Shown here one piece after another: positions 11,941 to 24,313 of a stretch of 64,000 nucleotides of DNA. Origin of the DNA: a virus. The translations under genes and the position numbers were made by a program. The notes under the pieces are model-generated. The model did no database searches and was not told the DNA's origin. It saw only the letters and a list, made by a program, of their open reading frames with translations. Each line of letters opens with the position of its first letter. Position 1 is the first letter of the stretch. The stretch lies in the IMG/VR virus record IMGVR_UViG_3300025705_000581. One strand, given 5' to 3'.

Positions 11941-11948
11941 TATAAATA
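11941..11948 (+). promoter_or_regulatory. T4-type late promoter
   Basis: TATAAATA. Confidence 0.65.
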
Positions 11949-11949
11949 A

Positions 11950-11976
11950 AAAGGTGTTCACTAGTTGGGCACCTTT
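11950..11976 (+). terminator. Terminator-like hairpin
   Basis: AAAGGTGTTCA-ctagt-TGGGCACCTTT, 11-bp stem with two G.U pairs. Confidence 0.55.
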
Positions 11977-11997
11977 CATCATTTTAAAGGTTATATT

Positions 11998-12639
11998 ATG
12001 CCAGTCTTTACAGTTGAAATCAACAATAAAGTAGTTGAGTTTACGCATATACCAAAATGCGGCGGTACATCCGCAAAATGTATGATGCTCGAGGCATCAG
12101 GATTTGATTGGAGAAACTCCCCGGCAAATGATTGGGGATTGCCAATAGGTCAAAGAAAACATCAAAAACAAAATAACAAATTCATGGATCAGCATGGAAA
12201 AGGTAAATTTGGTAACGTAGATTATCGGTTCACTATTATCCGTGATCCTATTAAAAGACTTGTGTCTTGTTATACAAACCGAGTGTTGTTTTATAATAAG
12301 ATGAGAAATCGTGGTTGGGATAATTTTGTTGATAAGTTAGGTAACTATGCAGCAGGTGATATTTCTCACCATTCTTTTCCAATGACGTATTGGCTAGGTA
12401 AAGATCCTAACCGATATGATAAGATCTTTACAGTATCACAGGTTGGCACAGATATGCGTGAATGGTTATCAGAAATTGCAAACACTGATGTACCTGCGCT
12501 GCAGCGACAAGATGGTGGTAGAGAAAAACAAAGTAAAATTGTTATTACTGAAGATCAGATAACAAGAATTAAAAAATACTATAAAAATGATTATGAGAAT
12601 TGGTGGAATGATAAGGTTGTTCCACAGGAGTTTGTATAA
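11998..12639 (+). CDS. Sulfotransferase (family 2)
   Basis: 5'-PSB motif FTHIPKCGGTS; 3'-PB motif IIRDPIKRLVSCY. Confidence 0.85.
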   Translation: MPVFTVEINNKVVEFTHIPKCGGTSAKCMMLEASGFDWRNSPANDWGLPIGQRKHQKQNNKFMDQHGKGKFGNVDYRFTIIRDPIKRLVSCYTNRVLFYNKMRNRGWDNFVDKLGNYAAGDISHHSFPMTYWLGKDPNRYDKIFTVSQVGTDMREWLSEIANTDVPALQRQDGGREKQSKIVITEDQITRIKKYYKNDYENWWNDKVVPQEFV

Positions 12640-13319
12640 TGTATATCCCAGAAATCAATACTTATTTTGTCCATGTTCCTAAAGCAGGTGGAACAAGTGT
12701 TGAATTATTCTTTCTTCGTAATGTATGTGGTTATCCTGACTTTCAAGAAAGAAATATGTTTCGGCAATTTATAACAAAATACGGTGGGCGAATAAATGCT
12801 TCACGGTATCATTTTGGACAACCAACACCTGAAAGATTACCTACTGGTGAAACACAGCATTTATCGGCATGGCAATTGAAAGCTTGGAATGATAAAGCCT
12901 TCACAGGATCTAAATACACATTTGCGTTTGTCCGAAACCCCTATGATAAATTTGTATCTGAGGTTATTTGGAAACGTGAAAGGCTACCTGGTAAAGCAAA
13001 TATAACATTTGAACAGCAGATTAGAGCTATGAAAGCGGAGACAGCGCGGGATAATATGAAAATACGTACTCCACATAATGCACCACAATGGAAGTTTGTA
13101 TATGATGAAAAAGATAATCTTATTGTTGATGACGTATTTAGGCTCGAGGAAATGGGTAAAGCACAAAAGGTTATATCGGAAAAACTCGGCATACCTATAA
13201 ACTTTGGGCATGAAAATAGAACAACACGAAAACATTATAAAGAATATTTGAATGCTGATTTAGTAAAACAACTTAAACCGTTAATTCAAAAAGATATGGA
13301 AGTATTCGGTTATGATTAA
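12639..13319 (+). CDS. Sulfotransferase (family 2)
   Basis: FVHVPKAGGTSV; FVRNPYDKFVS. Confidence 0.85.
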   Translation: MYIPEINTYFVHVPKAGGTSVELFFLRNVCGYPDFQERNMFRQFITKYGGRINASRYHFGQPTPERLPTGETQHLSAWQLKAWNDKAFTGSKYTFAFVRNPYDKFVSEVIWKRERLPGKANITFEQQIRAMKAETARDNMKIRTPHNAPQWKFVYDEKDNLIVDDVFRLEEMGKAQKVISEKLGIPINFGHENRTTRKHYKEYLNADLVKQLKPLIQKDMEVFGYD

Positions 13320-14019
13320 AACGCTATGGATATATTGGAATACAGGAATTAAAGCAGCACCACCAATTGTTCATAAATGCGTTGACAGTTGGAAACACCA
13401 TAATCCTACATGGAAAATAGTATTACTTGATAATACAAATCTTAGGGATTATTATAAAGGCACACAAGATGGGCGTAGTATTCAGGCGTGGTCTGATGTT
13501 GTTCGTATTAACCTACTTAAAGAATACGGCGGAGTGTGGGTAGATGCAACCGTTGCTTGTAATAAACCACTTGATAGTTGGTTACCTGCTCATGCTAAAA
13601 ACGGTTTCTTTGCGTTCCGAAAACCAAAACCTGATACCGAAGTTGCAAGCTGGTTTCTATATGCTGATAAAGATAATTGCATTGTAGATCGGTGGAAATT
13701 ATTGGTTGATGAGTATTGGAAGAACCGCCCAAATATAGATTATCTGTGGTTTCATGGTTTATTTAATAATGTATTAGAAGACCCTGCTTGTCAGGCAATG
13801 TGGAACAAAACTAAACCATGGCTGGCTAATCATAAACCACTTCCTGAAACACCTGACAACCCACACTGGTTTACACCATATAATGCCAGCAGATGGACAA
13901 AAATAAGAAAACAAGGATTGCCATTAACAGGACCTTGTTATAAATTAGCACACGGAACATCTAGGAGAATGATCCAAGAACCTACTATTATGAGGATATT
14001 TAATTATGAAAGTAAATAA
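13312..14019 (+). CDS. Capsular polysaccharide synthesis / GT32-like glycosyltransferase
   Basis: WIYWNTG, CVDSWKHHNP, SDVVRINLLKEYGGVWVDA. Confidence 0.85.
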   Translation: MIKTLWIYWNTGIKAAPPIVHKCVDSWKHHNPTWKIVLLDNTNLRDYYKGTQDGRSIQAWSDVVRINLLKEYGGVWVDATVACNKPLDSWLPAHAKNGFFAFRKPKPDTEVASWFLYADKDNCIVDRWKLLVDEYWKNRPNIDYLWFHGLFNNVLEDPACQAMWNKTKPWLANHKPLPETPDNPHWFTPYNASRWTKIRKQGLPLTGPCYKLAHGTSRRMIQEPTIMRIFNYESK

Positions 14020-14767
14020 GTATTATATAATTTATACTAATGATAACCTATCAAAACAATACGCAAATGATGCTGCCGAGCAATGTAAAAAGCTTGGATT
14101 AAATTATGAGTTATATGAAGGATGGAAACCAGAAGGTGGACCTGGTAAAATGTGGAGAAAGTTTACCGCTGAAACAGGAATTCCAATTAAATCATTTAAA
14201 AGAATGATGATTGGTGCTCATGGTTGTATGGCTTCTCATTTACAATTATGGCAAAGGATTGTTCAGAATAAAGAATGCGCTGTTATATTAGAACACGATG
14301 GGATGATGCTTCATAAAGTAAAGTTGGATATTCCCGATGATAAAATCGTTGCGTTAGGATACAAATATAGAGAATGGGAAGATTATGACTATAAGACTGC
14401 AGGTCAACCCGAAAGAATTAAAGATGTGAAATTTCATCCAGGTTCTCATGCGTATGCTATTACACACGTTACCGCACAGAAAATGATTGATGAAGTAACA
14501 AAGAAAGGTGTTACCGAGGCAATTGATAATCGTTGGTTTATGAGCACTCGGAAAAATTTCACCAAAGTACCAATGGCTATCTGTGATCCTATAGCAGCAA
14601 TTGGGTGGTTAAGATTATCAACTATTCAGGGATATAGTGCTCCTCATAATAATCATAGTGAAATGTTAGAATCTTTTAAGAACAACTTTAAAGGTCAGCT
14701 AAGAGAATCGGTTGTATTACCCAAAGGGTCTGTAAATATTATAAATAGAAACAAAATCAGAGAATAG
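14006..14767 (+). CDS. Glycosyltransferase, GT25-like
   Basis: GAHGCMASHLQLWQRI...VILEHDG; GSHAYAIT. Confidence 0.75.
   Translation: MKVNKYYIIYTNDNLSKQYANDAAEQCKKLGLNYELYEGWKPEGGPGKMWRKFTAETGIPIKSFKRMMIGAHGCMASHLQLWQRIVQNKECAVILEHDGMMLHKVKLDIPDDKIVALGYKYREWEDYDYKTAGQPERIKDVKFHPGSHAYAITHVTAQKMIDEVTKKGVTEAIDNRWFMSTRKNFTKVPMAICDPIAAIGWLRLSTIQGYSAPHNNHSEMLESFKNNFKGQLRESVVLPKGSVNIINRNKIRE
14740..14747 (+). promoter_or_regulatory. T4-type late promoter
   Basis: TATAAATA. Confidence 0.65.
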
Positions 14768-14776
14768 AGGTATCCT

Positions 14777-17017
14777 ATGGCAGACGAAAGCGATAAGGAC
14801 AAAAAGAAAAAGGTTAAAGGGTTCAAAGAATTTGATCCTGGAAACTATATTGATATTGAACCTACTATCAATGAAGCAAAAGTAGGCGAGGTTGTTGTTT
14901 CCTGGGGACGTATGAACCCTATTACAACTGGGCACGAAAAACTTATCAATAGAGTTTTAAATGTAGCAAAATCAAAGAATGCTACTCCTGCTGTATTTTT
15001 AACACATTCTCAAGATAAAACAAAAAACCCATTGTCATATAATGATAAGATCAAATATGCCGAGGTAGCATTTGGTAAAATCATTAAAAGATCAACTGCC
15101 AAGACAATTATTCAATTGATGCAGCAGTTACAAAAGAAATTTAAAAAGGTAACTCTCGTTGTTGGTTCTGACCGATATAAAGAGATGGATACATTGCTTA
15201 ACAAATATAATGGTAAAGAATATAAATTTGATGAAATAGAAGTTGTATCCGCAGGTGCTAGAGATCCTGATGCCGATGGCGTTAAAGGAATGTCAGCATC
15301 AAAAATGCGTGAGTATGCTGTTTCAGATAATATCAAAAAATTTACTACAGGATTACCTAGTAAACTAAAAACAAGCGCGGCCGACATTATGGCCAGCATT
15401 AAAAAGGGTATGGGAATGTCGGAAGAATATGAAGAAGACTTTATCGAAGAAGATGAACTAGACGAAGCTTTGACTCGACAGCAGCGTATTAAACGTGGCC
15501 GTCAAATGCGAAGAATGCGTGTTAAAATGAAAAGAGGTCGGGAAAAGGCAAGCCGCCGCCGGGCCAATATTGATGTTTTGAAAAGAAGATCAAGAAAAGC
15601 AGCACGTAATGTAATTAAAACACGTCTTGCTGGTAATAAACGATATGCTGATATGGAGCCTGCGGAAAAGGAACGTATTGATAAACGTATTGAAAAGATT
15701 TCAAAACAACGTATTGATAACCTGGCAATTAAATTGTTACCTTCTGTTAAAAAGAAAGAACGTGAGAGATTACAAGCACGCCATAAGAAAAATGAGTCTG
15801 TTGATCTGAATGAGATGTGGGGTGCATATGTAACTAAGCGACCACATATGCTTATGGATAAAAACAACAAACCAAAGTTTGATAAACGGTTTAAGATGTT
15901 TAAACCTAAACAAGTTACAGAGATGAATGAGTTTGATATTGAAGATATCGTTGAACTTATGGAATCAGTTGAAAAATTTACCGAAACAGCAGGTAAATAT
16001 TACACAGGTGTTGCTAAAAATAAGAAAGAAGAAGTAGAAATGGACGAAGCACACGATCCTAAACACGTAAAGATGGCGGTAGGTATTGCATCAGATAAAA
16101 GATATGCTGGTGGTAATATGACAGGTGCAGTTAAGCAAATTGATAAAATCAAAAAAGGTTTATCAAATCATCCACAGGTACGTGCAGTTTTAAGAAAACA
16201 AAATGAAGAACTAATTAATAAGCTAGAGGAAGCCATGATGAGCAATCAACTCGACGAATTAACAGCAGCTGAGAAAAAGCTTGTAAATCAAATGTATGAT
16301 AAAAAAGGCAACCTCACACCACTTGGTAAAAAAGTAATGAACCACGGTAAGAAAAAAGGTGATAAAGGTTTTGTTGAATCGTTAGATGATAGGTTTGAAG
16401 CATTCATGGCGGAATCAATTGACGAGGTTCTTGATACTCCAAAAGCAATGGATAGTTATAGAAATAAAGCTAAGTATAGTAAAGATAGAGCTGGCAACTC
16501 GGCGATGGCTACTGTTTTTAGAGGTGATGGCGACGGTAAAAAAGATTTAAAAACAATGTCCAAACGGACAAAGGGTTTAAAAATGGCAGATCGTAATGCA
16601 ACCAAGAAAACAGTTAAAGCTCTCCGTGCTGGTTATAATGAAGATCTTGATGAAGATGCTAAAATGAAAAAGCAATCTGATGATAACCTAAAAAGTTTGC
16701 ATAAGCAATTCAAAGGTCAAGATCAACAAATGCCATCAACTCAACATATGATGAAGCGTATCACTAAAGAAATGAAACGCCGTAATATGAGTGAGTCTGA
16801 AGAAGCAGCAAAGTTAGCATCTGTTGCTAACGGTGGTGTTCAGGATAAAGAAGATAAATTTAAAATTGCATTAAAACGTGTTCGTAATAAAAAATCTGAA
16901 TTGAAAGATGAAAGCTCTTGTGGATCATCAAAGAAAAGAAATGAAGAAGCAGGCGCAGGCGAAGAAGGTACAGCTAAATTAGTTAAAAGACTAAAGAAGG
17001 ATACACCTAATGCGTAG
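14777..17017 (+). CDS. Cytidyltransferase-like (HIGH-fold) nucleotidyltransferase fused to a long modular acidic/basic tail
   Basis: WGRMNPITTGHEKL, KNPLSY, VVGSDR, GMSASKMR in the N-terminal ~215 aa, then modules separated by acidic (L/I/M)xE linkers. Confidence 0.8.
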   Translation: MADESDKDKKKKVKGFKEFDPGNYIDIEPTINEAKVGEVVVSWGRMNPITTGHEKLINRVLNVAKSKNATPAVFLTHSQDKTKNPLSYNDKIKYAEVAFGKIIKRSTAKTIIQLMQQLQKKFKKVTLVVGSDRYKEMDTLLNKYNGKEYKFDEIEVVSAGARDPDADGVKGMSASKMREYAVSDNIKKFTTGLPSKLKTSAADIMASIKKGMGMSEEYEEDFIEEDELDEALTRQQRIKRGRQMRRMRVKMKRGREKASRRRANIDVLKRRSRKAARNVIKTRLAGNKRYADMEPAEKERIDKRIEKISKQRIDNLAIKLLPSVKKKERERLQARHKKNESVDLNEMWGAYVTKRPHMLMDKNNKPKFDKRFKMFKPKQVTEMNEFDIEDIVELMESVEKFTETAGKYYTGVAKNKKEEVEMDEAHDPKHVKMAVGIASDKRYAGGNMTGAVKQIDKIKKGLSNHPQVRAVLRKQNEELINKLEEAMMSNQLDELTAAEKKLVNQMYDKKGNLTPLGKKVMNHGKKKGDKGFVESLDDRFEAFMAESIDEVLDTPKAMDSYRNKAKYSKDRAGNSAMATVFRGDGDGKKDLKTMSKRTKGLKMADRNATKKTVKALRAGYNEDLDEDAKMKKQSDDNLKSLHKQFKGQDQQMPSTQHMMKRITKEMKRRNMSESEEAAKLASVANGGVQDKEDKFKIALKRVRNKKSELKDESSCGSSKKRNEEAGAGEEGTAKLVKRLKKDTPNA

Positions 17018-17282
17018 CTTCAAGCAACATTTAGAAGCATGCTGGTCTGATTACAAACAGGTTGGCATGAAGAAAAAAGGTGACAAGATGGTACCTAATT
17101 GTGTACCAAAGAATGAAAGTATTCCACCTGAAGTTGTGGGTGCGGCAATTGCTGCTCCTATGGTTGCACAAGGTATTAAGCATACCGCAAAAGGTGTTGC
17201 CAAAGCAATTAAAGGTGCTATTAAGGCACGTAGAGCTATTAAGAATACAGGTCAACGAATTGCTGATAAGGTAGTAAAATGA
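17010..17282 (+). CDS. Small putative internal virion protein
   Basis: MRSFKQHLEA tag; CWSDY...VPNCV; amphipathic C-terminus. Confidence 0.7.
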   Translation: MRSFKQHLEACWSDYKQVGMKKKGDKMVPNCVPKNESIPPEVVGAAIAAPMVAQGIKHTAKGVAKAIKGAIKARRAIKNTGQRIADKVVK

Positions 17283-17566
17283 AAACATTTAAACAATTTA
17301 TCTTTGCTGAGCATACACAATGTGGAACACCTGATTGCTGTGGTGAATGTGATACCGCCGTTACCGAAGGTTCAGAAACCTGGGAAGCTGGATATAAACG
17401 CCGTGTTGTAAAAACAACTGATCCTGACCATAAAGAGGCAGGACATAATTGGCGTATTAAAGGTAAAGATAAATCTCATCTTACTATTAAATTATATAAA
17501 GAAAAGCCTTCACAACAAGAATTCAATAAACAAATGAAAAGAGTTGCGGGACACGAGTTCGGATGA
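17279..17566 (+). CDS. Small putative internal virion protein
   Basis: MKTFKQFIFAE tag; CGTPDCCGEC. Confidence 0.7.
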   Translation: MKTFKQFIFAEHTQCGTPDCCGECDTAVTEGSETWEAGYKRRVVKTTDPDHKEAGHNWRIKGKDKSHLTIKLYKEKPSQQEFNKQMKRVAGHEFG

Positions 17567-18462
17567 AAAGCTTTAAACAATACATATCAGAAGAAAAAGA
17601 TAAGTCCACTGCAGTTGGATCTGGGTTTCATAAAGATGAAGACGGAAATGTTTTTATCTCGCACAGTACAATACACGATAGAGATGCGAAAAAAGATAAG
17701 AAAAAAGATACTAATGAATCTTTACTGAACAAAATTAAATCAGCTGTTGGTATGAAAGCAGACCATGAAAAATCTTTAGATGAGCATGCTGCTGGTCATA
17801 ACAAAGAGGATCATAGTGAACATTTGTCTAAGCATTCTGCTGACGCTCATAAAGATCCTCATGAAAGAAAAGCTTTTAATCATTTTAAAACAAACTCTAC
17901 AGAAATGAATGAGCATTTAATAAAATCTCATAAACGTAAAATACCACATTCATTTGATAAGCATAAGGCTGCTGAGCATAAAATGGGTAAAAAAGATCAC
18001 GCGCATATGGACGACTTTAAAACATTCCCTGATAAAGCCGGCTTGAAAAAGATTAACCATAGCGAAGCTCACGTGCATCATACAATCAATAAGCATTCTA
18101 AACCGCTAGGTAAGAAAATCACTTTATATCACGGTTCCCATCACGATTTTGGTGCGGCTGCTAAAAATAGTAAAGATGGTATCGTTCACAATCCGGCACA
18201 TATGTCTACATCACACGATCATAAATCATCAAAACGATTTGGAAGCGGACATATGGTAGTAATTCATGCCGATCGCAATACTAAGGCTGTTCATATAGAT
18301 GGGAAAGGTTCTGCATCAGCTGGCTCAGGTGAAAAAGAAACAGTATTACCAGCAGGTACTAAATTAAAACATATTAAATCGCATAAAACATCAGATGGAT
18401 ATAATGTGCATCACTTCAAAGTTCACAGCCAAGAAGACCATGGCAGTCACTATGATAGCTAA
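17563..18462 (+). CDS. His-rich putative internal protein with C-terminal ADP-ribosyltransferase domain (Alt/Mod-like)
   Basis: MKSFKQYISEE tag; LYHG...MSTS...GEKETVLPAGTKLK corresponds to the R-STS-ExE ART triad. Confidence 0.7.
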   Translation: MKSFKQYISEEKDKSTAVGSGFHKDEDGNVFISHSTIHDRDAKKDKKKDTNESLLNKIKSAVGMKADHEKSLDEHAAGHNKEDHSEHLSKHSADAHKDPHERKAFNHFKTNSTEMNEHLIKSHKRKIPHSFDKHKAAEHKMGKKDHAHMDDFKTFPDKAGLKKINHSEAHVHHTINKHSKPLGKKITLYHGSHHDFGAAAKNSKDGIVHNPAHMSTSHDHKSSKRFGSGHMVVIHADRNTKAVHIDGKGSASAGSGEKETVLPAGTKLKHIKSHKTSDGYNVHHFKVHSQEDHGSHYDS

Positions 18463-18478
18463 TAACTAAGGAAAACAA

Positions 18479-19045
18479 ATGAAAAGCTTTAAGCAATACA
18501 TATCAGAAGAAACAGAAACACTTAATGAAAGTGCACTTAAAGCTTTACGGGTTGCTACTAAAGCCCATTCAGGACAGACACGTAAAAGCGGTGGTAAATA
18601 CATTGAGCATCCAAAAGAAGTTGCTCGGTTCGTACAAAAGTTTAAAAAATCAAACAATCTTTCGGCGTTAGTACAGGCAGCCTATCTACACGATACTATT
18701 GAAGATACTGATACAACATATGCTGATTTGGTTAAACAGTTTGGTGCTCTTGTGGCTGATATGGTTCAGGAATTAACAACTGATAAAGCTGCGTCTGATG
18801 CTATTGGTAAAGGCGAATATATCGCTGGTAAGATGGCTAAAATGTCAAGTTGGTCGTTAGTTATTAAACTTGCGGATAGATTAGCAAACGTACAGGACAT
18901 TGATACACGGCCTGCTGATTTTCAAAAGAAATATGCTGCACAGACTGCACTCGCTATTAAACGTCTCCGTAGTGATAGATATTTAAGTAAAACACATAAT
19001 AAGATCATTACTGCCATTGAGAAAAAAATTAAAGAATATGTATAG
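18479..19045 (+). CDS. HD-domain RelA/SpoT-family small alarmone hydrolase (Mesh1-like) with capsid-targeting tag
   Basis: AHSGQTRKSGGKYIEHP, AAYLHDTIEDT, FGALVADMVQELT, KLADRLAN. Confidence 0.9.
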   Translation: MKSFKQYISEETETLNESALKALRVATKAHSGQTRKSGGKYIEHPKEVARFVQKFKKSNNLSALVQAAYLHDTIEDTDTTYADLVKQFGALVADMVQELTTDKAASDAIGKGEYIAGKMAKMSSWSLVIKLADRLANVQDIDTRPADFQKKYAAQTALAIKRLRSDRYLSKTHNKIITAIEKKIKEYV

Positions 19046-19331
19046 TTTCAAACAATATATTTCTGAAGGTATCATGGTTAAACTGATTCGTGGTAAAGGC
19101 CAGGATACTTTAAAAATGAAAGACACTAAAGAAAAGAGTTGGGTTGAATTACGCGGCAAACCTAATTTTGAAACCAAATATGATAAAAGGGATCCGTTAC
19201 ATAAAGCAATTACGGCGCTAGGTAAATCGGCAAGTATATCTGATTTTATGAATGGTGATGAAGTAAGTATAAATCCAAACCATCCTGACGGTAAGAAAGC
19301 GTTGGCAACTATAAAGAAGTTAATGAAATGA
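19038..19331 (+). CDS. Small putative internal virion protein
   Basis: Start set at MYSFKQYISEG (19038). Confidence 0.7.
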   Translation: MYSFKQYISEGIMVKLIRGKGQDTLKMKDTKEKSWVELRGKPNFETKYDKRDPLHKAITALGKSASISDFMNGDEVSINPNHPDGKKALATIKKLMK

Positions 19332-19594
19332 AAACATTTAAACAGCATATAGAAGCAACATACCAAGGTAAAGAGGTTAAGTTAAACAAACCTATGGCGG
19401 GTGATGTTGCTAAATCAAAAGTATTCGTTGATCCTGATGGTGACGGTGTTGCTAAGAAAGTTAATTTCGGTGACAAGAATATGACAATTAAAAAGCATAT
19501 TCCAGCACGAAAGAAATCTTTTAGAGCAAGACATAATTGCGATAATCCTGGGCCAAAAGACAAGGCACGATATTGGTCTTGTAAAGCCTGGTAA
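19328..19594 (+). CDS. Small basic putative internal virion protein
   Basis: MKTFKQHIEA tag; SFRARHNC...KARYWSCKAW. Confidence 0.75.
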   Translation: MKTFKQHIEATYQGKEVKLNKPMAGDVAKSKVFVDPDGDGVAKKVNFGDKNMTIKKHIPARKKSFRARHNCDNPGPKDKARYWSCKAW

Positions 19595-19598
19595 ATAT

Positions 19599-19606
19599 TA
19601 TAAATA
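19599..19606 (+). promoter_or_regulatory. T4-type late promoter
   Basis: TATAAATA. Confidence 0.65.
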
Positions 19607-19632
19607 AAACAAACAGCAAATAGAGAAGTAAT

Positions 19633-19977
19633 ATGTATAGTTTTTCAGAACATAGTCTTATTGAACACGTTGAGGCACATCTCATTGAAAATGATCTTGT
19701 ACTTGATAATATAGATGACGAACAACTTGACGAAATCATCGGTATGGCCGCAAAGGCTGTAGGAGCAGTTGCTAAGGTAGGTGCAAAAGGTGTTCGACGA
19801 GCATTAACAAATAAACAAGGTCAATTCCGTTTATCAACTGCGGGACGTAATACGGCACGTGATAATAAAGCAAAACGTATTAATGATAGAGCAAATGCTA
19901 TACGTGACAGGAAAAAAACGAAGACAGCTGTTGACAAGGCCAGAGAAAACTTACGCAACGCAAGACGGGGGAAATAA
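19633..19977 (+). CDS. Putative internal virion protein: acidic N-terminus, very basic C-terminus
   Basis: MYSFSEHSLIE...QLDE then IIGMAAKAVGAVAK... Confidence 0.7.
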   Translation: MYSFSEHSLIEHVEAHLIENDLVLDNIDDEQLDEIIGMAAKAVGAVAKVGAKGVRRALTNKQGQFRLSTAGRNTARDNKAKRINDRANAIRDRKKTKTAVDKARENLRNARRGK

Positions 19978-19978
19978 A

Positions 19979-20386
19979 ATGGACACGAATAAAGTTAGAG
20001 AAGCAATTATTGATGCACTCGGTCGAGTAAGTGAACTCGACGAAAAGAAAATGGATCCAGTGGGGCAGGCTGACGCAGATATTGATAACGACGGAGACGT
20101 TGATGACTCAGACAAGTATCTACACAATCGCCGTAAAGCTATTAAAGATAAGATGAAAGAGCAGACAGAAGCTCGCTTATCAGAAGATAATATGACTGTT
20201 AATATCGACCATGAGGGTGGCCACGATCCAGTAGCTAAAAAACATGGCATCACTTTAAAGAAAACAAGTGATTCTGATTATGCTCACGACGCTACAGGAA
20301 AAAAGAAAAATCTTCAAAAATATCTAGCTCATCATTATGATAGCCATGAAGATGCAAAAGAAATTCATCCTGACGTTTATAAATAA
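19979..20386 (+). CDS. Hypothetical putative internal virion protein
   Basis: Start set at MDTNK; LDEKK and DADIDNDGDVDDSDKYLHNRRKAI. Confidence 0.7.
   Translation: MDTNKVREAIIDALGRVSELDEKKMDPVGQADADIDNDGDVDDSDKYLHNRRKAIKDKMKEQTEARLSEDNMTVNIDHEGGHDPVAKKHGITLKKTSDSDYAHDATGKKKNLQKYLAHHYDSHEDAKEIHPDVYK
20378..20385 (+). promoter_or_regulatory. T4-type late promoter
   Basis: TATAAATA. Confidence 0.65.
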
Positions 20387-20423
20387 GAATAACTAAGAAA
20401 CCCAAATAAGGAGATAAAAACAA

Positions 20424-20723
20424 ATGGCACTTTGGGGAAAAACCGATGCATTAGCTTCCGTACCAAAATGGTTGGAAGATAATGCTAATAACACAAACAA
20501 ATCAAATGACCGTGATAATGCGGTATTTGTTGACCTTGAGGAATCGGCTGTAGCAGCTAACAGAGCAAAAGGTTTGACAGGCCCAGGTTGGTGGTTGTAC
20601 CACACATCAAACGGTCGTCACTTTGCTGAATGCTTGGTACCAATGAAGGTCTCAGCATCTGATGCAGGCGACTTGGGTGTGACAGGTCTAGGCGATGACG
20701 CAATCGTTGCTGATCCTTCATAA
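20424..20723 (+). CDS. Hypothetical protein, probably virion
   Basis: 99 aa; SD AGGAG; late promoter upstream. Confidence 0.75.
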   Translation: MALWGKTDALASVPKWLEDNANNTNKSNDRDNAVFVDLEESAVAANRAKGLTGPGWWLYHTSNGRHFAECLVPMKVSASDAGDLGVTGLGDDAIVADPS

Positions 20724-20739
20724 GTAAAGAAAATATAAT

Positions 20740-21114
20740 ATGAAATTAACAGAATCAACCTTTCTGTTATTTGCCGCAAAACATTATGATAATCCACAAT
20801 GCTCCGACGTATCAGAGTTTGAAGAGGATTTAAAACGTTTTCATTATTTACGAAAACTATTTGGCAGATATAGGCAAGATAAAGATTTAAAAGAAAGGTT
20901 GATTCTGAATCACCTGATAATCATATATAACGTATTCGGTGAAGAAGCAACGAGTATTTTGTTTATGAGACTTTATGAATACCATGATTATTTAAAACCG
21001 TTTGTTGAATATTTAAACTTCATGCCTACGGTTATTGAATATGATGGGATTATTATACACAAGGATAGTATTGTGTCTGATAAATGCATTAAAGAAAAAC
21101 TCGAAGGAATTTGA
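20740..21114 (+). CDS. Conserved T4-like hypothetical protein
   Basis: AKHYDNPQC...ERLILNHLIIIYNVFG. Confidence 0.75.
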   Translation: MKLTESTFLLFAAKHYDNPQCSDVSEFEEDLKRFHYLRKLFGRYRQDKDLKERLILNHLIIIYNVFGEEATSILFMRLYEYHDYLKPFVEYLNFMPTVIEYDGIIIHKDSIVSDKCIKEKLEGI

Positions 21115-21117
21115 CCC

Positions 21118-21906
21118 ATGGTCGTTGATCTATTTTTAGTTTACCAATTCATCCGCCGTTTGGCTACACCATTTGATAAGTGGGAAGCATATAAGCAAGG
21201 TATTATTGATAAAGATGGTAAAGTATTAATCAAATCAAAAGATTTTACAAAAGGTTCTCAACGTAAAGCATGGGGAGTTTTTGATAGAATGATTGCTAAC
21301 CTTAAAAAGTTGTTAGCAAAGATACCTGGTGGTAGTTCTCGGTTTGCATCATATGCCGCGGCATTGTTTCTAATTAAAGAATACAAACATTTTACCGATG
21401 AATCATTACTAAATGAAGAATGGACTGATGAACAATTAGATGAATCAATGCATTTATTTCATATTAGATATAATCATTATACCATACTCTCCGAAAATGT
21501 CAATGGTTATTTTGATGAACTTGATGAAAAACTTAAAGCATCAGATGATATGGGTGTGTGGGTAAAAGATTTTCAGAAATCAGATGCACCACAATTCAAA
21601 GGTAAATCTCAAAAGAAAAGACAACAAATGGCCGTTGCTGCAAAGCTTGATGCAATGGATGAAGCCCCAACTAATATGCGTAATATAAAACTTATCAACA
21701 AAATCAAGAAGTCTGGTGTTGTCAAGTCTGGTTCTATGTCACAGAATGATCCCAAAAAATCTGTTAATACAAAACCTGAAATCACAGAAGAAATGCCAGC
21801 CAATGCAGTAAGCACCGGTGCAATTGCTAATATGGATGCGTCGGGAATTGATAACAAAAAGAAAAAGAAAAAGATTAAGGATATGATGAGGAGAACCCCA
21901 CAATGA
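21118..21906 (+). CDS. Conserved T4-like hypothetical protein with acidic cleavage-like linkers
   Basis: FIRRLATPFDKWEAYKQGIIDKDG; LNEE, LDES, MDEA, ITEE. Confidence 0.75.
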   Translation: MVVDLFLVYQFIRRLATPFDKWEAYKQGIIDKDGKVLIKSKDFTKGSQRKAWGVFDRMIANLKKLLAKIPGGSSRFASYAAALFLIKEYKHFTDESLLNEEWTDEQLDESMHLFHIRYNHYTILSENVNGYFDELDEKLKASDDMGVWVKDFQKSDAPQFKGKSQKKRQQMAVAAKLDAMDEAPTNMRNIKLINKIKKSGVVKSGSMSQNDPKKSVNTKPEITEEMPANAVSTGAIANMDASGIDNKKKKKKIKDMMRRTPQ

Positions 21907-22760
21907 TTACTATAGAGCAATTTAGCGCTATGATCCCAACTAACAAAGATCCACAACCGTGGTTTGATGCGGCAGTGGAAAAGTTTGATGAATATAACAT
22001 TAATACTCCAAATAGAATTGCAGGCTTTATGGCACAGTGTGCTCATGAGTCAGCAGACTTTACACGTTTAACTGAAAACCTTAACTATTCGGAAAAAGCA
22101 TTGAACTCGGTGTTTGGTCGCTATTTCGGAAAAGGAAAACGAAATGCTAAAGAATACGCTCGAAACCAGGAAAAGATCGCAAACTATGTCTATCAAGACG
22201 AGTTTAGATCCAAGCGAGGAGCTTTGGGAAACACTGAACCCGGGGATGGCTGGCTATTTAGGGGTAGAGGTATCAAACAGCTTACGGGCAGAAATAATTA
22301 CGCGGCTTTTGGAAAGTCCGTGGGTATGTCCGCAGAAGAAGCTGCAGAATATGTAGCAACACCAAAAGGTGCTATTGAGTCAGCATGCTGGTTCTGGGCA
22401 ACTAATAAACTCGACAAATATGCCGATGATGGCGACAATGTTGGGTTGACAAAAAAGATTAATGGTGGTACAATTGGATTAGATGACCGTAACCGTCGTT
22501 GGGAATCAGCCTTGTCCATTCTTGGTGGTGAAATGCCTGCACCAAAGAAAGCAGCACCTAAGAAAGCTGCAGGTGTGCGTACACTACGCAAAGGTATGCA
22601 AGGTGATGATGTAGCTAAAATGCAAAAGGCAATTGGTGTAGGAGCTGATGGCGATTTTGGATTTGGAACTCTTACTGCTGTTAAAAAATGGCAAAAGATG
22701 AACGGATTGGTTGCAGATGGTATTGTAGGTCCTGCTACACAAGCAAAGATGTTTAAATAA
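21903..22760 (+). CDS. Endolysin: GH19 catalytic domain plus C-terminal peptidoglycan-binding domain
   Basis: FMAQCAHES, FRGRGIKQLTGRNNY, INGGTIGLDDR; LRKGMQGDDV...ADGIVGPAT. Confidence 0.9.
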   Translation: MITIEQFSAMIPTNKDPQPWFDAAVEKFDEYNINTPNRIAGFMAQCAHESADFTRLTENLNYSEKALNSVFGRYFGKGKRNAKEYARNQEKIANYVYQDEFRSKRGALGNTEPGDGWLFRGRGIKQLTGRNNYAAFGKSVGMSAEEAAEYVATPKGAIESACWFWATNKLDKYADDGDNVGLTKKINGGTIGLDDRNRRWESALSILGGEMPAPKKAAPKKAAGVRTLRKGMQGDDVAKMQKAIGVGADGDFGFGTLTAVKKWQKMNGLVADGIVGPATQAKMFK

Positions 22761-22797
22761 ATAAATAAATGACGGAATTAAACAAAGGAGACACAAA

Positions 22798-23013
22798 ATG
22801 TCACTAGAGAAAATTGTAGAAGCGGCAATGTCTGAAAAGCCATTGGATCTGAAAGAAGCATTTGAAGCTGAAGTTGAAGAGCGTATTATGGCTGCATTGG
22901 CAGAGAAATACAAAAAAGCAATGGAAGCAAAAGATGAAGACGACGATGAAGATGATGACGATGCCGACGAAGATGAAGATGATGAAGACGACGAGGACGA
23001 AGACGACAAGTAA
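22798..23013 (+). CDS. 67: Prohead core protein, gp67-like
   Basis: Helical N-terminus (IVEAA...LKEAFEAEVEERIMAAL) plus poly-D/E tail, as in T4 gp67. Confidence 0.6.
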   Translation: MSLEKIVEAAMSEKPLDLKEAFEAEVEERIMAALAEKYKKAMEAKDEDDDEDDDDADEDEDDEDDEDEDDK

Positions 23014-23026
23014 GTCTTCTTAACAT

Positions 23027-23476
23027 ATGGCAAAACTATATCTGTTACTTATTGTCTGTGGTTTAATTGGTGGTGTAGGATATGGTGCTAAATCATATTA
23101 TGAATGGTCGGAAGCAACCATTTCAACACTTCGTACTAATAACGTTCAATTAGCATCTGCGGCGGAAACTCTACAAAATACTGTAGACACAATGGCCGCA
23201 GATGCAGAACGTAACGAAAAACTCAATCAAAACCTGACAGCGCAACTAAATGAATCACGAGAGTATTTGAATACTTTACGTGCTAAATTTGCGCGAATTG
23301 ATTTAACTATGGAAGCGCTAACTGACGCGCAAAATTTGGAAGAAAGGGTAAACAATGCTGTTGAAAGACTCATCAGTGATATTGCCGATGAAACTACTCC
23401 TCCTAGTGCTGTTGATGATACTTCTGACAGCGTGCTCGGGGAGGACAGTGGAGCCGACAGTAGTAACGTCGACTGA
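23027..23476 (+). CDS. Inner-membrane spanin (Rz-like)
   Basis: N-terminal TM segment, coiled coil, overlapped by a lipoprotein gene. Confidence 0.75.
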   Translation: MAKLYLLLIVCGLIGGVGYGAKSYYEWSEATISTLRTNNVQLASAAETLQNTVDTMAADAERNEKLNQNLTAQLNESREYLNTLRAKFARIDLTMEALTDAQNLEERVNNAVERLISDIADETTPPSAVDDTSDSVLGEDSGADSSNVD

Positions 23477-23735
23477 ATACATCCAGCAAAACATTCCTAT
23501 TCAAGGCAGACCGGGTAAAGTAGATTTTCCGCCTGTAGATTGGTATGTTATCACCGAAGAAAATTTGGAAGAAAAGATTGCTGAAATTGAAGCTCAACAA
23601 GGATCTGTTGTTGTTTTTGCTGTAACATCAAAAGGATACGAAAATCTTGCATTAGGTATTGCAGAATTGCGTCGCTATATTAATGAACAAAAAGCGATAA
23701 TTGTGTACTATGAGGATGCCTTGAAGAATAAATAA
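23388..23735 (+). CDS. Outer-membrane lipoprotein spanin (Rz1-like)
   Basis: MKLLLLVLLMILLTAC lipobox; overlaps the i-spanin in another frame. Confidence 0.8.
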   Translation: MKLLLLVLLMILLTACSGRTVEPTVVTSTEYIQQNIPIQGRPGKVDFPPVDWYVITEENLEEKIAEIEAQQGSVVVFAVTSKGYENLALGIAELRRYINEQKAIIVYYEDALKNK

Positions 23736-23821
23736 TACCGTAATACTATTTCTGAGTGATTAAACATACCACGGAGTTAGTCACAAGCCTCCGTTAAAAA
23801 AGGCAAAAAGGGAATAAAAAG

Positions 23822-24313
23822 TTGAGTAAAGATACCAACTGGGAAACAGATATCGCCCTAATTAAATCTGATATCAGACAGATTCAGAAATTCTTTACCA
23901 GAGTTGAAGACTCAATGGATATGATGGTTGACCTATCCAAAAATGTTGCTGTTCAGTCTGAGGTATTAGAGTATACAAAAGAGAAACTTACCGAAGTTGA
24001 AAAATTATGTGAAGACACAAGGCGTACTGATGAATTACGTTTAACTGTTTTGAGTGACCGCCTTGAAGAATACCGAAGATCAAGCAAAGAGGATCACCAA
24101 AAATTGGCAGACCATAACGCAAATAAACGGCACAATGCCAATAAAGAAATATTGGATAGACTTGATTCTATGGAGCGGTCGATACATCAACGTATTAACG
24201 AGCAACAGAAAAAGATTAACAACCTTGAGAACTGGCGTTATTATATGATGGGTGTTGGTGCCGTCGTAGTAGTTCTATTAGCAAGAGTAAATTGGCCAGA
24301 ATTATTTGGTTGA
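23822..24313 (+). CDS. Coiled-coil protein with C-terminal TM segment, holin candidate
   Basis: TTG start; WRYYMMGVGAVVVVLLA TM; last gene of the lysis cassette. Confidence 0.5.
   Translation: MSKDTNWETDIALIKSDIRQIQKFFTRVEDSMDMMVDLSKNVAVQSEVLEYTKEKLTEVEKLCEDTRRTDELRLTVLSDRLEEYRRSSKEDHQKLADHNANKRHNANKEILDRLDSMERSIHQRINEQQKKINNLENWRYYMMGVGAVVVVLLARVNWPELFG

Follow-up and report, generated by a model that had tools for sequence, protein, structure and literature searches.

A tagged small alarmone hydrolase as putative head cargo of an uncultured marine T4-like phage

The stretch of DNA analysed here, the 64,000-nucleotide IMG/VR virus record IMGVR_UViG_3300025705_000581 (below, the window), comes from an uncultured T4-like myovirus of 37% G+C and contains at 18479..19045 on the + strand a gene for a small alarmone hydrolase (SAH) of 188 amino acids plus stop. 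The protein is of the Mesh1/SpoT type with intact active-site residues, and it starts with a conserved tag resembling the capsid-targeting sequence (CTS) of T4 internal proteins. Its gene behaves as an exchangeable cassette in one context and as a polyprotein module in another. From these observations we infer packaging, cleavage, ejection, substrate and timing: the protein is probably an alarmone hydrolase that is packaged in the phage head and injected into the next host.

Hydrolase domain and N-terminal tag

The SAH gene, taken from the list of open reading frames, starts with ATG, and a Shine-Dalgarno-like AAGGA (18468..18472, +) can be read in the sequence 6 nt ahead of it. Its product matches Pfam HD_4 over residues 22-156 (59.7 bits, cut-off 27.2, E 3.6e-16). 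It is a single domain, no synthetase domain being matched in it by the PF04607 profile. Among solved proteins, human MESH1 comes closest in sequence (3nr1, E 2e-15; alignment beginning at query residue 20), followed by hydrolase domains of long Rel/SpoT enzymes and then by bacterial SAHs; MESH1 and Rel matches span E 1e-15 to 1e-11. The hydrolase motifs listed in the first-pass annotation of this DNA are all present, namely AHSGQTRK (residues 29-36), YIEHP (41-45), LHDTIEDT (70-77), LTTDK (99-103) and KLADRLAN (130-137). Across 95 aligned homologues, H30, R35, Y41, H44, H71, D72, E75, D133, R134 and N137 are invariant, and D76 is kept in at least 90%. H44, H71-D72, D133, R35, E75-D76 and N137 align with residues of MESH1 and Rel. 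The conserved residues include the metal ligands (H...HD...D) and catalytic residues (R, ED, N) of Mesh1/RelSeq.

The AlphaFold model of the protein (pLDDT 92.9, pTM 0.87) comprises 11 helices, and only its first 17 or so residues fall to pLDDT 62-70. Foldseek ranks 9chy, 5vxa, 3nr1 and 6yvc as top matches (TM 0.77-0.84), with TM 0.80-0.84 for MESH1 and 0.77-0.83 for the Pseudomonas aeruginosa SAH. The Mesh1/SpoT identity proposed earlier is therefore borne out by the HD_4 match, the conserved catalytic residues and the MESH1-like fold of the model. Since every family feature that can be tested in silico was found, the protein is placed in the small alarmone hydrolase family. By family, active-site residues and modelled fold it is an intact Mesh1/SpoT-type hydrolase, and it would be expected to hydrolyse (p)ppGpp/(p)ppApp.

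Residues 1-17 form an extension ahead of the fold that is not found on untagged SAHs; solved structures and SAHs of cultured phages align from about residue 20 of the query, or without the tag. Within this extension, residues 1-10 (MKSFKQYISE; 18479..18508, +) make up the CTS-like tag, with a predicted first cut after E10. The linker of residues 11-17 (ETETLNE; 18509..18529, +) ends at a second cleavage-like site, LNE/S, where the slash marks the putative cut. The predicted mature hydrolase (residues 18-188; 18530..19042, +) has a mass of 19.0 kDa and an isoelectric point (pI) of 9.7. By amber suppression in T4 IPIII, residues 4 and 7 were shown to govern targeting, and residues 8 and 10 processing (PMC9026906). 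At all four mapped positions the window tag (F4, Y7, I8, E10) matches T4 (Y4, F7, I8, E10); the T4 starts, read from NC_000866, are MKTYQEFIAE for ipII/ipIII and MKTFKEF for ipI.

Conservation of the tag was followed in orthologues. Of 82 tagged ones, 79 have F or Y at position 4 and 77 have Y, F or H at position 7. The second site, L15-N16-E17/S18, is likewise conserved in the alignment of the window protein with 98 near-length orthologues (53-97% identity): of the 99 sequences, 92 have L, I or V at position 15 and 93 have E at position 17. Twenty-one distinct tag DNAs of orthologues all encode Phe4, with both of its codons in use, and position 7 stays aromatic or His through five codons. Because synonymous codons vary while residues stay, selection acts on the tag peptide and not on the DNA. 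The tag is retained, again with varying synonymous codons, on SAH orthologues down to about 48% identity, and phage SAHs of at most 45% identity to the query begin directly at the fold. Both elements claimed in the first-pass annotation thus hold: the tag, by its CTS-like residues 4, 7, 8 and 10 and its peptide-level conservation, and the second site, TLNES at residues 14-18, by the LxE conserved in orthologues.

Tagged and fused SAHs also differ in charge from the remaining phage enzymes. The median pI of uncultured phage SAHs at or below 45% identity is 6.2 (mostly acidic), against 9.3 and 9.6 in the two clades of tagged or fused forms (Mann-Whitney p 4e-6, uncorrected for relatedness). In the tree of SAH domains, tagged and fused forms make up two supported groups (97/95 and 91/88), and weakly supported branches of untagged phage SAHs lie between the two. 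The tag may have been acquired once or twice, as the topology fits either.

Cassette exchange and polyprotein modules

The SAH gene lies within seven consecutive genes (17010-19977) that begin with M[KRY][ST]F[KS][QE] and whose products are otherwise unrelated; no such start occurs on the minus strand of the window. Since seven consecutive genes share it and none on the opposite strand does, the tag is far beyond chance. All seven products are basic (pI 8.7-10.2, against a median of 6.1 for the remaining proteins of the window). In relatives, arrays of 3-9 tagged genes surround SAH in varying order and combination, always between a polyprotein headed by a nucleotidyltransferase and a conserved block consisting of a small head-protein homologue, DUF7207 and an endolysin. 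Tags of the same type head genes of the locus in cyanophages S-MbCM100 and S-RSM4.

Comparison with the nearest virus record (G001; 221 kb, estimated complete, 93-97% identical over window positions 12000-24000) reveals a clean insertion or deletion. G001 lacks window 17593-19038, which is exactly the SAH gene and its upstream neighbour, a tagged ADP-ribosyltransferase-like (ART) gene (17563..18462, +; weak Pfam ADPrib_exo_Tox match, E 9e-5). The right junction lies in the tag-coding start of the following gene (19038..19071, +; MYSFKQYISEG). The junction gene in G001 (G001:C1:162294) is chimeric, joining the tag of the window ART gene to the body of window gene 19038, and the first 34 nt of the SAH and ART-like genes are identical at 33 positions. 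As the G001 junction falls inside tag DNA and the two tags are nearly identical, tag DNA acts as the site of crossover through which cargo is gained and lost. Exchange of this kind has been described for the internal-protein locus of T-even phages.

The same SAH also occurs fused. In IMG/VR locus L033 (3820-7410, +), a polyprotein of 1197 amino acids holds SAH as an internal module (residues 728-905), 76.4% identical to the window SAH over 178 residues without a gap. Homology to window protein 14777 extends over the first 345 residues of this polyprotein and over a C-terminal segment. The chain of modules begins with the nucleotidyltransferase and DUF5824, continues with the counterpart of window gene 17010 and with SAH, and closes with the C-terminal module of 14777 and the counterpart of window gene 19328. 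The window linker ETETLNE/S aligns with the junction ESVDLDE/S of L033, behind which the module proper occupies residues 734-905. At its other end the L033 module finishes with IKEYV, the last five residues of the window protein, and VTE and VDE follow. The modules matching tagged window genes 17010 and 19328 are preceded by VNE or IDE in place of tags. All four homology-defined junctions of L033 coincide with an [LIVM]xE motif or lie a few residues at most from one (24 motifs in 1197 residues), for which the chance is estimated at roughly 1e-3. In distant relatives (about 50% identity), SAH domains reside inside proteins of 400-1000 residues, mostly headed by a nucleotidyltransferase with an HxGH motif, and are preceded by xDE/G, xEE/G or xAE/G; across all relatives, the nucleotidyltransferase-headed polyproteins that hold SAH span 400-1200 amino acids. 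The tag on a separate gene and the Glu junction in a polyprotein are thus interchangeable, which would follow if a Glu-specific maturation protease cut at both. The window SAH itself, being a single domain, does not have the layout of polyvalent or polyprotein cargo.

Other modules of the array are rearranged too: the 17010 module stands at the C-terminus of a 978-aa polyprotein in L014, and a tagged protein of 191 amino acids in L016 and L017 unites the 17010 and 17279 modules. Such arrangements point to frequent fission and fusion of cargo modules. Some SAH-containing polyproteins, among them P0160 (870 aa) and P0122 (732 aa), also carry an NT5C 5'-nucleotidase domain or DUF6934, which suggests a wider set of nucleotide-directed cargo domains.

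Since tag DNA is the junction of the ART and SAH indel and two tags agree at 33 of 34 nt, the shared N-terminus could be taken for a mere recombination linker, or for a translation-initiation element of late genes, with no targeting function. We give this very little credence. It does not account for conservation at the level of the peptide (both codons at F4, five codons at position 7), for replacement of the tag by an (L/I/V)xE junction wherever the module is internal to a polyprotein, for the match to experimentally mapped CTS positions of T4, or for the detection in virions of a tagged homologue of a locus neighbour.

Virions, maturation protease and late expression

The neighbour in question is window gene 14777..17017 (+), which heads the tagged array and encodes a basic polyprotein of 746 amino acids with an HxGH nucleotidyltransferase head (NMNAT-like/cytidylyltransferase; Pfam CTP_transf_like, phrog_3041). 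Homologues of 14777, annotated as NMNAT-like proteins or cytidylyltransferases, were found by mass spectrometry (MS) in virions of cyanophages S-CREM2, S-SZBM1, S-SCSM1 and S-CBWM1 (PMC10665884, PMC9146016, PMC9602691). S-CREM2 gp154 is 32% identical to 14777 (E 8e-26) and begins with MKNFSSFLTE. These cyanophage data are the only experimental anchor for packaging and concern the homologue of a locus neighbour, not SAH; the text of Sullivan 2010 contains no mention of a cytidylyltransferase.

Further support is provided by the head genes of G001, among them those for a gp23 homologue and for a prohead protease of the T4 type (Peptidase_S77, 125.7 bits). Between its portal and protease genes, a protein of 402 amino acids (minus strand, 9016-10224 of L013, i.e. 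G001:C1:201000-216000) begins with MKSFKQKLAE, the same tag as in the cargo array, and the protease itself begins with MKLITEIFNE. The gp23 homologue has an LSE/A site near residue 61, close to the position of the cut in T4 gp23, after Glu65. Peptidase_S77 is also present in three near-complete genomes with tagged or fused SAH (G002, G003 and G006). A clean correlation between tagging and possession of S77 was considered and rejected.

The pI of the mature SAH, 9.7, may be compared with 8.9-9.5 for T4 internal proteins. As for expression, genes from 14777 to 19594 are close-packed or overlapping, and the nearest T4 late-promoter-like TATAAATA upstream of them is located at 14740..14747 (+). 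All 11 TATAAATA of the window are on the + coding strand, intergenic and just ahead of gene starts (e.g. 3794, 7921, 11941, 14740, 19599 and 20378), so that their strand and placement, not their count, are suggestive. Sigma-70-like promoters and terminators in window 14000-21000 were not above chance. Taken together, the indel junction, the polyprotein fusion, virion MS of the neighbour's homologue, the basic pI and the T4-type protease of a relative are independent lines that indirectly support packaging of SAH.

In the mechanism we propose, the SAH precursor would be made late in infection, and its first 10 residues would act as a T4-like CTS that brings it into the assembling prohead core. 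A T4-type prohead protease would cut after Glu, at ISE10 and/or LNE17, freeing a basic 19-kDa hydrolase of the Mesh1/SpoT type, which would stay in the DNA-filled head and be ejected into the next host along with the genome. There, before phage gene expression, it would strip the 3'-pyrophosphate from (p)ppGpp, (p)ppApp or tRNA pyrophosphorylated by toxic small alarmone synthetases (toxSAS). Stringent-type growth arrest would be lifted as a result, or an alarmone-based defence blunted.

Several observations weigh against this mechanism. Mesh1-type enzymes also bind NADPH and 3'-phosphoadenosine 5'-phosphosulfate (PAPS), so SAH may have a substrate other than alarmones. The S77 protease and head genes of the window phage are deduced from G001, a phage that itself lacks SAH, and since two of the four phages with untagged SAH have S77 as well, the protease alone does not predict tagging. 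The number of TATAAATA in the window is not above chance (11 found, 7.95 expected), and the SAH gene has no such promoter motif of its own, the nearest being 3.7 kb upstream. Finally, a precursor made late exists in the producing cell too and may act there.

This last point leads to the alternative that SAH works mainly in the producing cell, late in infection, where it would keep alarmones low during head filling or neutralise toxSAS of the CapRel type that are triggered by capsid protein, any packaging being incidental, minor or absent. The late-type operon would place the precursor in the cytoplasm while capsid protein accumulates, and a major capsid protein is what activates CapRel (PMC9712102). 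Several coliphages are restricted by the stringent response; T7 counters this response through its portal protein, which lowers (p)ppGpp before lysis (PMC13483052). Moreover, most phage SAHs are untagged and must act from within the cell. What such a role leaves unexplained is the presence of a CTS-like tag and LxE site under peptide-level selection, the basic SAH domain, like that of T4 internal proteins, and the interchange with an internal module of a polyprotein that has virion-borne homologues. We therefore consider the producing-cell role rather unlikely as the main one. Anti-stringent action, anti-toxSAS action (including reversal of tRNA 3'-pyrophosphorylation) and late action in the producing cell are all plausible as roles of the enzyme.

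Neighbours, precedents and significance

In four relatives (L003, L043, L045 and L047), the tagged SAH is adjoined by a divergent RelA_SpoT synthetase-like gene (29.4 bits, cut-off 27), located at L003:10572-11333, L043:1324-2196, L045:4727-5611 and L047:4616-5599. Those of L043, L045 and L047 are themselves tagged (MKSFKAFMAE, MLNFKSFINE), and that of L003 has merely a tag-like start (MSELKRYILEE). The L003 call rests on a single Pfam match just over the cut-off, and the protein has no sequence relative in PDB. These four phages may carry a synthetase/hydrolase pair, possibly virion-borne, comparable to the MuF-Apk2 toxins of prophages with Aph1 (PMC12226406). Neither tblastn nor a family profile revealed a synthetase-like gene in the 64-kb window. 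G001, a complete relative, has none either, and none lies up to 6 kb away from any clade-A SAH orthologue; for this reason the window SAH is regarded as an orphan. Conserved adjacency to a synthetase toxin, typical of type IV antitoxins of the ATfaRel type, is seen in the distant subclade of L003, L043, L045 and L047 alone.

The pairs of this subclade suggest another function, one that the first-pass annotation did not take into account, namely that SAH is the antidote to a toxic nucleotide-modifying effector borne by the phage, protecting the producer or timing the effector, as in Aph1/MuF-Apk2 and ATfaRel/FaRel. In addition, the window SAH was gained or lost together with the ART-like gene, and an ART homologue is also found near SAH in L001, L002, L017 and L032. 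Adjacency to ART is, however, not general, HD hydrolases are not known to reverse ADP-ribosylation, and the orphan state of the window SAH and its clade-A orthologues also speaks against a partner. An antidote function thus appears quite improbable to us.

Regarding substrates, SAH might act in vivo as a Mesh1-like phosphatase of NADPH or of 3'-phosphoadenosine 5'-phosphate (PAP)/PAPS, tied to NAD-related cargo (NMNAT-like proteins, ART) or to sulfotransferases. The closest structures include human MESH1 complexes with NADPH and PAPS, according to PDB titles; SAH domains are often fused behind NMNAT-like nucleotidyltransferase domains; and the window has two adjoining sulfotransferase-like genes (phrog_3347) at 11965-13319, with TATAAATA ahead of them at 11941. 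On the other hand, every residue common to bona fide (p)ppGpp hydrolases is retained, and the synthetase-like neighbour in one subclade points to pyrophosphorylated nucleotides. G001 retains both the sulfotransferases and the nucleotidyltransferase without SAH, so a PAP/PAPS link between SAH and sulfotransferases is not obligatory. We hold a NADPH or PAP/PAPS phosphatase to be highly improbable and retain alarmones as the expected substrate.

The window carries homologues of gp32, UvsX, gp41 helicase, gp61 primase and NrdAB. Among cultured phages no UvsX exceeds 66% identity to that of the window, and megablast with window 14000-22000 gave no match to cultured phages; the lineage is a distant marine T4-like group. 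SAH orthologues come from Tara, JGI and ENA metagenomes. More than 100 protein clusters of tagged SAH were counted in the Tara and JGI sources, and a tagged hydrolase of the SpoT/Mesh1 type is thus common in ocean metagenomes. The best cultured-phage match to the window SAH is in Vibrio phages (47% identity), and no close orthologue was found in any cultured cyanophage of the collection. PADLOC gave no match for SAH, the ART-like protein, the 14777 polyprotein or the synthetase-like protein of L003.

Of known systems, the array is most readily compared with the CTS-bearing T4 proteins IPI, IPII, IPIII and Alt (Mullaney and Black 1996; reviewed in PMC3012670, PMC9026906 and PMC5694885). Common to both are a propeptide of about 10 residues with aromatic positions 4 and 7, I8 and E10, the sharing of this tag by unrelated basic proteins, a variable locus, and a phage with Glu-specific S77 protease, seen here in relatives. 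One cargo neighbour in the window is ART-like, as is Alt. Unlike in T4, whose internal proteins include no known alarmone hydrolase, the cargo here is such an enzyme; its propeptide is 17 residues long with two sites, and modules alternate between tagged genes and parts of polyproteins.

As a phage-encoded single-domain hydrolase of the RelA/SpoT homologue family, the window SAH resembles PaSpo of SSU5 and PbcSpo of PVP-SE1 (PMC7229694). It is just 32.5% identical to the SSU5 enzyme, however, and nothing suggests that SSU5 and PVP-SE1 SAHs are virion-borne. With MESH1 (HDDC3), the P. aeruginosa SAH and Corynebacterium glutamicum RelH it shares the fold (TM 0.71-0.84) and the metal and catalytic residues. 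In contrast, MESH1 and the bacterial SAHs are cellular, have no propeptide and are 23-28% identical to it, and MESH1 also acts on NADPH.

S-CREM2 gp154, S-SZBM1_140, S-SCSM1 ORF91 and the S-CBWM1 proteins are related to the array through their homologue 14777, which heads it, and gp154 bears the same type of tag. They were detected by MS in CsCl-purified virions but are a different enzyme from SAH, and neither a targeting tag nor processing is discussed by the authors (PMC10665884, PMC9146016, PMC9602691). Alarmone enzymes tied to phage heads or injected proteins are represented by MuF-Apk2 with Aph1/IapK (PMC12226406) and by polyvalent proteins with RelA/SpoT synthetase (PMC5512222), which include processed multi-domain cargo, as the system described here would. 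Those systems, however, deliver a synthetase, the hydrolase being the immunity protein, and do so through a MuF domain or through a polyvalent protein processed by a metallopeptidase instead of a T4-type CTS.

CTS-targeted internal proteins, phage SAHs and virion-borne NMNAT-like proteins were thus already known separately. In the library searched, no literature joining a capsid-targeting tag to cargo of cyanophages or marine T4-like phages was found, nor any on a packaged alarmone hydrolase. The biochemical premise of the first-pass annotation, that SAHs hydrolyse (p)ppGpp/(p)ppApp and that phage SAHs neutralise toxSAS, is correct: each toxSAS tested was neutralised by the stand-alone enzymes of SSU5 and PVP-SE1, in a study whose authors suggested that SAH could let incoming phages bypass alarmone-based defence (PMC7229694). 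If SAH is packaged, counter-defence would be extended, since a pre-packaged enzyme would act on defences that fire at entry.

The ppGpp hydrolase proposed earlier for marine T4-like phages was MazG (PMC2984593), but ppGpp is not a substrate of the cyanophage enzyme (PMC6850273). With a packaged SAH, acting before transcription, the gap left by MazG would be filled, and the old idea that marine T4-like phages silence the starvation signal of their host becomes testable with a defined protein.

In more general terms, marine T4-like phages would load interchangeable enzymes into their heads by means of a T4-type tag or an (L/I/V)xE junction. Alarmone hydrolase would be a frequent cargo, its synthetase-like partner being tagged in some lineages, and would reset alarmone signalling or reverse toxSAS damage as DNA enters. 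For this broader proposition we see the chances as even. If it is true, resetting of alarmones at entry would have its greatest effect in the very small, slow-growing cells of the ocean. At a cell volume of a few hundredths of a femtolitre, one molecule already amounts to tens of nanomolar; a few dozen injected copies would therefore reach a high, micromolar enzyme concentration in small ocean bacteria. Beyond SAH, the tag, the exchange of cassettes and the split and fused modules would provide a rule for predicting virion cargo of uncultured T4-like phages.

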